NCBI GenBank assembly: GCA_964645485.1
Contig: CAZXZO010000004.1
Location: forward strand, 14,740 to 78,739
Direction: 5' to 3'
Length of the DNA: 64,000 bases
Source: an uncultured Candidatus Poseidoniales archaeon
GTDB taxonomy: Archaea; Thermoplasmatota; Poseidoniia; Poseidoniales; Thalassarchaeaceae
In this document: positions 49,609 to 51,390 of the stretch, piece after piece
How the letters are laid out: every line of letters starts with the position of its first letter
Numbering within the stretch: the first letter of the stretch is position 1
The notes under the pieces: generated by a model
Told to the model about the DNA's origin: nothing
The model's database searches: none
What the model saw: only the letters and a program-made list of their open reading frames with translations
Position numbers and translations under genes: made by a program

Positions 49609-49844
49609 GATGTAATCTAATGATGGGCCCGTCCAGATTTAATTCCATCTGACTCATTTTTGATTTAATTCAACGCAAGGTGTCCCTCACTTCCCTCAGC
49701 CCAACCTTGCGCTCCAGCGTCAAACACGCCCCCTCAATCAATTTTCAGAGGCCCGGGCTTGTTTAACGCGGAGTTCAAATCTAGCAGGCTGTATTGAATA
49801 TGATTTCATATTGATGTAATCGAATGATGGGCCCGTCCAGATTT
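49609..49844. repeat. 32-bp direct repeat of the tRNA-Pro 3' end (att-like), copies 49609-49640 and 49813-49844
   Basis: gatgtaatc(t/g)aatgatgggcccgtccagattt, 31/32 identical; the second copy overlaps the tRNA. Confidence 0.9.
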
Positions 49845-49902
49845 GAACTGGAGTCTAAGCGTCCCAAACGCCCAAGCATAGGCCAGGCTAACCCACGGGC
49901 CC
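49828..49902 (-). tRNA. tRNA-Pro (anticodon TGG)
   Basis: reverse complement: GGGCCCG acceptor, GGGCG-TTTGGGA-CGCTT anticodon arm, TCCAG-TTCAAAT-CTGGA T arm, CGGGCCC-A. Confidence 0.95.
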
Positions 49903-50406: not shown

Positions 50407-51048
50407 TTAGAAAGAGAAGTCACCACTATTGGTGTCCTTTGCAGGCCGGCTAGCGCCGGCACCTGTCGAGAAACCTTCTCCTGCACTCTTTGTTAATCCG
50501 CCTCGGACCCTACCAACTGGTCCTGATTGCATATTCATTGTATCAGGTAAGATTAGTGCTGCCAAGGCACAGCCGTGGTGGTCAGATGCAGCATTTACTT
50601 CATCAACTGCAATTTCATGTTTCACAACTTCGAGGTCGCGTGATGCCAACTTACGCTTCAAATTCATTTTCAGCATTAATTCAGTTTCTTCGTAAGAAAG
50701 GTTGGTTGTTAGGGTTGCAACGATTGAACACTCATCTCCTTCTGGAGTGACACATTGTGCCCATGCAACTCCGGCGGATGCTATGCCGCCATTGAATGAG
50801 TACGATTCAGCAATATGGCATTCAACAAGTGAACCCATTGCTAAATCTTCTGGGGGGGAGGGCTCAAAACCCATTGGTAACATTGCTCCCTCCATGCGGA
50901 TTAATCTAGAATCCCCAAGACCTAATTCAACTAAGCATTGGTCAAACGCGTCTTCTTTAGTATCACCCCACGGTGCTACTGATGTCATCAACCAACCGGT
51001 GCAGGAGCCCTCTGCTCGTCTGCGACCTGTATCAACATTGAAGTCCAT
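50407..51048 (-). CDS. pyruvoyl-dependent arginine decarboxylase (PdaD/PvlArgDC) homologue lacking the Ser-Ser cleavage site
   Basis: AFDQCLVELGLGDSRLIRMEGAMLP aligns with family AFDxALxxAGIGNxNLIRxSSIxP; LAMGSLV; GCALAAL. Confidence 0.75.
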   Translation of the reverse strand: MDFNVDTGRRRAEGSCTGWLMTSVAPWGDTKEDAFDQCLVELGLGDSRLIRMEGAMLPMGFEPSPPEDLAMGSLVECHIAESYSFNGGIASAGVAWAQCVTPEGDECSIVATLTTNLSYEETELMLKMNLKRKLASRDLEVVKHEIAVDEVNAASDHHGCALAALILPDTMNMQSGPVGRVRGGLTKSAGEGFSTGAGASRPAKDTNSGDFSF

Positions 51049-51099: not shown

Positions 51100-51390
51100 A
51101 TGCAGTGGCGCCGTCTCGCCCCAGCCTTGCTTGTTGTCGGCTTGATGTTGTTAGTTGTCGCATTAAAAACTCAAGATGCTGGCGGGATATCTCAGGAGGC
51201 TTTTGCGGTTTTGCTCATTTTGTTTATTGGAATGTTCAGTTTTATTGTATTATCGGCACCAGAATCCAATGAAATACAGGATTCATCCAAGTCTTTCAAA
51301 ACAGAAGATTCTCTCTCAAGTGATACTGAAATATCCCAGCCTCCCCTCCCAGACCCATTGGACGAAGGATTTGACTCTCCTCTAATGTGA
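51100..51390 (+). CDS. small two-TM membrane protein with acidic tail
   Basis: 96 aa, two hydrophobic helices then a D/S/P-rich tail. Confidence 0.65.
   Translation: MQWRRLAPALLVVGLMLLVVALKTQDAGGISQEAFAVLLILFIGMFSFIVLSAPESNEIQDSSKSFKTEDSLSSDTEISQPPLPDPLDEGFDSPLM

Follow-up and report, generated by a model that had tools for sequence, protein, structure and literature searches.

For the gene described here the closest known family is that of the pyruvoyl-dependent arginine decarboxylases (PdaD or PvlArgDC), whose reference proteins we take to be M. jannaschii MJ0316 (PDB 1MT1, 1N2M, and 2QQD) and Chlamydia AaxB, 1N2M presumably being the non-processing S53A proenzyme. In M. jannaschii (Mj) PvlArgDC, the residues Leu31, Asn47, and Glu109 presumably belong to the pocket, Asn47 is assumed to be required for processing, and Asp35 is taken to contact the guanidinium group of the substrate. 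Self-cleavage in this family takes place at Ser53 and is facilitated by the carboxylate of Glu109, which also serves catalysis (PMC2720952). A pyruvoyl-enzyme homologue that has lost processing and catalysis and is kept under selection is known from Trypanosoma brucei, where the AdoMetDC prozyme acts by forming a heterodimer with its active paralogue (PMC5201418). SpeD homologues from a Ca. Poseidoniales MAG and an uncultured MGII/III archaeon, clustered with speB and speY, have been expressed and shown to decarboxylate L-arginine (Km 2–3 mM) with no AdoMetDC activity, and were named SpeDA; a PdaD relic goes unmentioned in that paper (Li et al., J Biol Chem 2023, PMC10407285). Our literature searches found no description of an MGII PdaD relic.

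The window is the whole stretch of 64,000 nucleotides that was analysed, from an uncultured Candidatus Poseidoniales archaeon; its host genome (G000; Thalassarchaeaceae, MGIIb) is 1.94 Mb in size and 82% complete. The features of the locus are collected in Table 1. We consider it likely, with a probability of about 0.7, that the gene is a Poseidoniales descendant of PdaD that has lost its cofactor, that agmatine is made by SpeDA in its stead, and that the old fold has been given a new role other than decarboxylation.

Table 1 Features of the PdaD-relic locus, with positions in the window and the basis or description of each feature.
Feature	Position	Strand	Basis or description
PvlArgDC-fold protein P0001, putatively catalytically dead PdaD derivative of Poseidoniales	50407..51048	-	Pfam, Foldseek, 255 MGII homologues
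Degenerate self-cleavage segment L49-I-R-M-E-G-A-M-L57	50878..50904	-	Opposite L-I-R-I-S-S-I-M-P in alignments
D46-S47-R48, aligned to Mj N45-V46-N47	50905..50913	-	Sequence alignment
Thr112, at the catalytic/processing Glu109 position	50713..50715	-	Sequence alignment
Asp36 (Mj Asp35), kept from the canonical enzyme	50941..50943	-	D in 113/113 MGII, 34/39 canonical
E76-C77-H78	50815..50823	-	Glu and His invariant, MGII-specific (canonical F/H/P/Y and V)
Clade-specific C-terminal tail, residues 171–213	50410..50538	-	pLDDT, sequence comparison
Zn-ribbon/winged-helix gene, 149 aa, P0221	49941..50390	-	4-Cys Zn ribbon N-terminal, winged helix C-terminal
Small membrane protein, 96 aa, divergent	51100..51390	+	Conserved acidic G-F-D-x-P C-terminus; syntenic across the order
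tRNA-Pro (UGG)	49828..49902	-	Immediately downstream of the Zn-ribbon gene

The open reading frame is intact (213 aa plus TAA), as an earlier note on this DNA had claimed. Its product, P0001, matches PF01862 (PvlArgDC) with 33.3 bits over profile positions 14–160 of 161 (gathering cut-off 22.7 bits); the score against the NCBIfam equivalog TIGR00286, 33.8 bits, is under the cut-off of 106.95. Among PDB sequences, phmmer matched P0001 solely to M. jannaschii PvlArgDC chains (1n2m, 2qqd; E 1.5e-4). The AF2 model, built from 22 orthologues, is confident for residues 15–170 (core pLDDT mostly 79–97), and its 12 best Foldseek matches in PDB are all PvlArgDC chains (1n2m/2qqd; E 1e-13), with TM to target of 0.82–0.88, rmsd of 2.1–3.7 Å, and 24–27% identity. 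The PvlArgDC fold assignment is solid and P0001 belongs to the homologous family: the alpha-beta-beta-alpha fold is shared end to end at ~26% identity, and Asp35 and Arg137 are conserved, as are several framework residues (Gly/Ala/Pro). The end-to-end similarity that the earlier note had reported is borne out by profile and structure alike, the structure search returning a related fold. All 255 homologues of P0001 are of Poseidoniales source. Judged by its residues, P0001 is outside the enzyme class EC 4.1.1.19, because three defining features were tested (Ser52-Ser53, Asn47, and Glu109) and none was found.

For the comparison of residues, 113 full-length MGII orthologues were aligned with 39 canonical PvlArgDCs (HMMER and MAFFT alignments). 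The segment LIRMEGAML reported earlier is real, its position being 50878–50904 and not the claimed 50881–50910. Glu53 of P0001 aligns opposite Ser52 of Mj PvlArgDC; opposite the pyruvoyl-forming Ser53 stands Gly54 or Ala55, depending on the placement of a one-residue gap. The Ser53 column (position 55 of the window protein) holds Ala in 112 and Thr in 1 of the 113 MGII proteins, against Ser in 38/39 canonical ones; the inserted position 54 is Gly in 113/113 and a gap in all 39 canonical proteins; the Ser52 column (position 53) is variable in MGII (Q/E/K/H), against Ser in 35 and Thr in 3 of 39. The orthologues therefore do not retain Ser-Ser, and of the MEG motif the Gly proved invariant while the Glu position is variable. 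The upstream DSR, noticed earlier in place of the Asn positions, is likewise real, and in the Asn47 column (position 48) Arg is found in 113/113 MGII proteins and Asn in 38/39 canonical ones. A further replacement, absent from the earlier note, adds to the lost residues: the Glu109 column (position 112) reads T74/K26/S13 in the 113 MGII proteins and Glu in 38/39 canonical ones. The residues presumed to line the Mj pocket, Leu31, Asn47, and Glu109, are Glu, Arg, and Thr in P0001; Arg137 is conserved alongside Asp36 in the MGII proteins. Unlike PdaD/PvlArgDC, the relic is thus without Ser52, Ser53, Asn47, and Glu109, has one residue inserted at the cleavage site, and carries an extra basic tail of ~45–50 aa.

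From these replacements we infer that the MGII PvlArgDC homologue can neither self-cleave nor decarboxylate; P0001 would in effect be a natural, stabilised counterpart of the proenzyme that we take 1N2M to represent. The claim of a homologue unable to form the pyruvoyl cofactor and yet kept intact is supported, the loss being common to 113 orthologues and extending to Asn47 and Glu109. Among the 113 MGII proteins, no other strictly conserved, suitably placed Ser, Thr, or Cys was found that might serve as a new cleavage nucleophile.

Candidates for an alternative cleavage site were considered one by one. Gly72-Ser73 was rejected (position 73 is S108/T2/A2/I1); cysteinolysis at Glu76-Cys77 was judged unlikely (the pair lies mid-strand in a predicted beta-strand, and the canonical column reads C/V/T); Thr101 was rejected as being without precedent.

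Agmatine has to be supplied in G000, because the genome encodes TiaS. The only PF01862 match in G000 is the relic, so that no canonical pdaD was found, and neither a SpeA-type decarboxylase nor a spermidine synthase (SpeE) was found there. An alternative decarboxylase is present: G000 has one AdoMet_dc-family gene (SpeD homologue) on contig 18 whose D-E-S-H processing site is intact, a DHS/SpeY homologue directly downstream of it, and an agmatinase-family gene. That this SpeD homologue is orthologous to the proteins assayed in PMC10407285 is our inference from taxon and gene order only; the assayed proteins, DAC51064 and AIF02979, were not among the cluster members looked up. Across the order, a SpeD homologue was found in 118 of 121 Poseidoniales genomes, and the agmatinase family in 118 of 121 also. 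Arginine decarboxylation in Poseidoniales is carried by SpeDA, a pyruvoyl enzyme of another family. Like SpeDA, the ancestor of the relic had the function of an arginine decarboxylase, and both are found in the same genomes; unlike the relic, SpeDA belongs to an unrelated family (AdoMet_dc, PF02675), has an intact Glu-Ser processing site, and is encoded elsewhere, in G000 on contig 18 next to speY. The relic is not the cell's arginine decarboxylase. That it should still decarboxylate arginine, its carbonyl cofactor being obtained in another way, is scarcely credible: the conserved fold, Asp36, and Arg137 would suit such an enzyme, but the cleavage loop and its surroundings offer no Ser, Thr, or Cys, both Asn47 and Glu109 have been lost, and SpeDA is encoded nearly throughout the order.

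Several arrangements of the SpeDA genes were observed. On contig 18 of G000, the frames of the SpeD homologue (L003:1450-1878) and SpeY/DHS (L003:1835-2845) overlap by 44 nt from their first possible starts, as would be expected if the two were tightly coupled in translation or if SpeY began at another start codon. In G100 (Poseidoniaceae; L036:971-2266), SpeDA and SpeY are fused in one 431-aa ORF with an L-L-D-E-S-H site; in G015 (L037:95-1708), agmatinase (SpeB) and the SpeD homologue share one open frame; in several further genomes, the SpeD matches lie within frames of 430–570 aa.

No canonical PdaD was found in the 121 Poseidoniales genomes (no PF01862 match above 37 bits). Among the non-Poseidoniales Thermoplasmatota, 143 of ~165 genomes have a PF01862 match, nearly all of 96–219 bits; both same-class non-Poseidoniales genomes have one (182–190 bits), the one sequence that was read containing V-S-V-S-S-I-L-P-P, and no AdoMet_dc gene was detected in these two genomes. 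The absence of canonical PdaD from Poseidoniales and its retention in other Thermoplasmatota bear the signature of PdaD having been displaced by SpeDA on the order's stem. The relic resembles the AdoMetDC prozyme of T. brucei, conceptually its closest precedent, in being a pyruvoyl-enzyme homologue that is kept under selection with processing and catalysis lost; unlike the prozyme (PMC5201418), it has no active PvlArgDC paralogue in any of the 121 genomes.

PF01862 under-detects the relic within the order (9/121), and the search was repeated with a clade profile, by which it was found in 76/121 genomes: 58/59 of f3 (Poseidoniaceae by source names), 2/2 of f2, and 15/59 of the window's own family (Thalassarchaeaceae). 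With the same profile the relic was not found in 44 of the 59 sampled Thalassarchaeaceae genomes, which are spread over seven genera with genomes of 1.2–1.6 Mb; in one complete genome (G027), the two genes that flank the relic elsewhere abut, with no remnant between them. The role of the relic is accessory and dispensable, and the gene was lost by streamlined Thalassarchaeaceae genera. An apparent split or internal deletion of the relic gene in G003 was traced to N-masked bases and rejected as an artefact.

Where it is present, the relic is under strong purifying selection and is not decaying. Against the same-genus orthologue, dN/dS (Nei-Gojobori) is 0.049 (core 0.031, tail 0.095); against more distant Thalassarchaeaceae orthologues it is ~0.07, the full range being 0.03–0.08. 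An IQ-TREE phylogeny unites the MGII proteins in a single clade (98/93) with a stem of 1.37 substitutions per site and short internal branches, as expected for a change of function in which rapid change is followed by freezing; no sister of the MGII clade is supported in this tree, and the clade is not sister to the same-class PdaDs. A functionless relic drifting to loss is very improbable on these values: its absence from so many Thalassarchaeaceae genomes, over seven genera, and the takeover of its original job by SpeDA would fit such drift, but the dN/dS values, the frames intact in 76 genomes of three families, and the invariant motifs and tail terminus speak against it.

About 40 positions, many of them polar, are invariant in the MGII clade where the canonical enzymes differ or vary; examples are E32, D33, Q37, D46, R48, G54, F61, E76, and H78, and further T101-P-E, D138, E140, D149, E150, and H157. 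Cys77, between the invariant Glu76 and His78, is common in canonical proteins as well. The C-terminal extension claimed earlier was confirmed: canonical PvlArgDCs end near residue 168, and the tail is found in all MGII orthologues. It is predicted to be disordered (pLDDT below 50 for residues 173–213); in the MGII proteins its median length is 50 aa and its pI 11.5, against 4.25 for the core. A motif G-R/P-x-R-x-G-L-T is found in the tail of 76/113 proteins, and 109/113 have [D/S/N]-F-x-[L/F/I] as their last residues or close to the end (D-F-S-F in P0001). Newly fixed residues and a tail under purifying selection point to a new role and not to a decaying relic. The course of events would have been that SpeDA displaced PdaD on the stem of the order, that the PdaD gene then changed rapidly and was afterwards frozen by strong purifying selection, and that in the process ~40 positions became newly invariant and a tail of ~50 aa, basic, disordered, and ending in F-x-hydrophobic, was added.

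As to what the new role is, our preferred mechanism is a tentative one, to which we would give slightly less than even odds: the relic may be a non-catalytic adaptor or binding protein. Its acidic core would stay uncleaved and proenzyme-like, and would probably be trimeric like its ancestor; the basic tails would be presented, with the C-terminal motif docking on a partner or on nucleic acid; and a small ligand may still be bound in the remodelled pocket, where Asp36 is kept and Glu32, Arg48, Glu76, and His78 are new. Against an adaptor, the new invariant polar residues (E32, D33, Q37, D46, R48, E76, H78, T101, D138, E140, D149, E150, and H157) would fit a catalytic or metal site too. A PdaD fold remade after SpeDA had taken over agmatine synthesis, acting either through this pocket as a small-molecule-dependent switch or new enzyme, or in the manner of a prozyme as an activator of MGII SpeDA, whose kinetics are poor (Km 2–3 mM), with the basic tail and its F-x-hydrophobic terminus coupling it to a partner, is conceivable but rather unlikely.

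Taken more narrowly, a new enzyme would use an acid-base or metal site made of Glu76 and His78 (on the same face of a strand), His157, Asp149/Glu150, and Arg48, its substrate possibly being a guanidino or amine compound recognised via Asp36. The number of clade-invariant positions, many of them polar, the very low dN/dS of the core (0.03), and the retention of Asp36 and Arg137 argue for such an enzyme; we nevertheless hold it to be unlikely, since there is no recognisable catalytic motif and no family match beyond PvlArgDC, Cys77 goes back to a position in the hydrophobic core, the His157 column is often aromatic or charged in canonical proteins (K/H/E/L), many genera do without the relic and show no obvious loss of a pathway along with it, and the new charged residues could merely stabilise the uncleaved loop. 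The "new chemistry" that the earlier note had allowed for keeps this low standing.

The neighbourhood bears on a role that the earlier note had proposed, that of an arginine/agmatine sensor acting with the adjoining Zn-ribbon/winged-helix gene. The start of that gene (P0221) lies 16 nt past the stop codon of the relic. For P0221, Pfam and NCBIfam gave only sub-threshold Zn-ribbon matches, and Foldseek gave local similarities only, to winged-helix and Zn-ribbon structures (MTH1184/DUF1922, S27e ribbons). In nearly all genomes having both genes, the Zn-ribbon gene lies directly downstream of the relic on the same strand, with gaps of 10–130 nt; one exception is G015, in which the genes are convergent and ~700 nt apart. 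The Zn-ribbon gene was found in 115 of the 121 Poseidoniales genomes, including every genus without the relic, and was not detected in the two same-class non-Poseidoniales genomes. Since it is a core gene of the order, its pairing with the relic is weak evidence for a shared function. Prediction of a complex of the two proteins gave an ipSAE of 0.00, a value that we count neither for nor against an interaction.

A relic that regulates, or serves as the ligand-binding subunit of, a co-transcribed Zn-ribbon/winged-helix protein by sensing arginine or agmatine is on this evidence improbable. The same-strand adjacency, the retained Asp36, and the winged helix of the partner speak for it; against it, the Zn-ribbon gene, where the relic is missing, stands directly beside the same small membrane-protein gene, the two genes are convergent in G015, speDA and speB persist whether the relic is there or not, and the pocket is heavily remodelled at the three positions named above. 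The sensor proposed earlier was left unsupported, the Zn-ribbon gene being a core gene and no co-variation with polyamine genes being seen.

Some smaller observations were made on the same neighbourhood. The P0221 proteins, which match no assigned family, share an invariant V-x-[LF]-A-N-x-P-x-E-L-R motif in the linker. The small membrane protein on the other side of the relic (in the window, and at L019:2935-3303) ends in D-P-[LI]-[DE]-[DE]-G-F-D-x-P-hydrophobic, a terminus that loosely recalls the acidic-F-x-hydrophobic end of the relic itself. A scan for sigma-70 promoters and terminators, which is ill-suited to archaea, gave nothing above chance.

MGII is among the most abundant archaeal groups of the ocean. 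Databases carry its relics under the label "pyruvoyl-dependent arginine decarboxylase", so that agmatine synthesis may be credited to the wrong gene in metabolic reconstructions of MGII. PdaD and SpeDA offer a clean, order-wide case of non-orthologous displacement, after which the displaced enzyme was retained and remodelled; among dead homologues of pyruvoyl enzymes, the relic would form a second type next to the AdoMetDC prozyme of trypanosomes.

A second, apparently independent dead PvlArgDC homologue was observed in a different family of Thermoplasmatota (L029, G213:C51:4700-5800; 154 aa). In its genome (G213, 87% complete) no AdoMet_dc gene was seen, and a PF01862 match was obtained in only 1/9 genomes of its family. 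With the canonical profile the protein reaches 94.6 bits, with the MGII profile 44; it reads V-T-G-V-L-P, against V-S-S-I-L-P, at the cleavage site, a residue other than Glu stands at the Glu109 position, Asn47 is retained, and the protein ends without the C-terminal tail.
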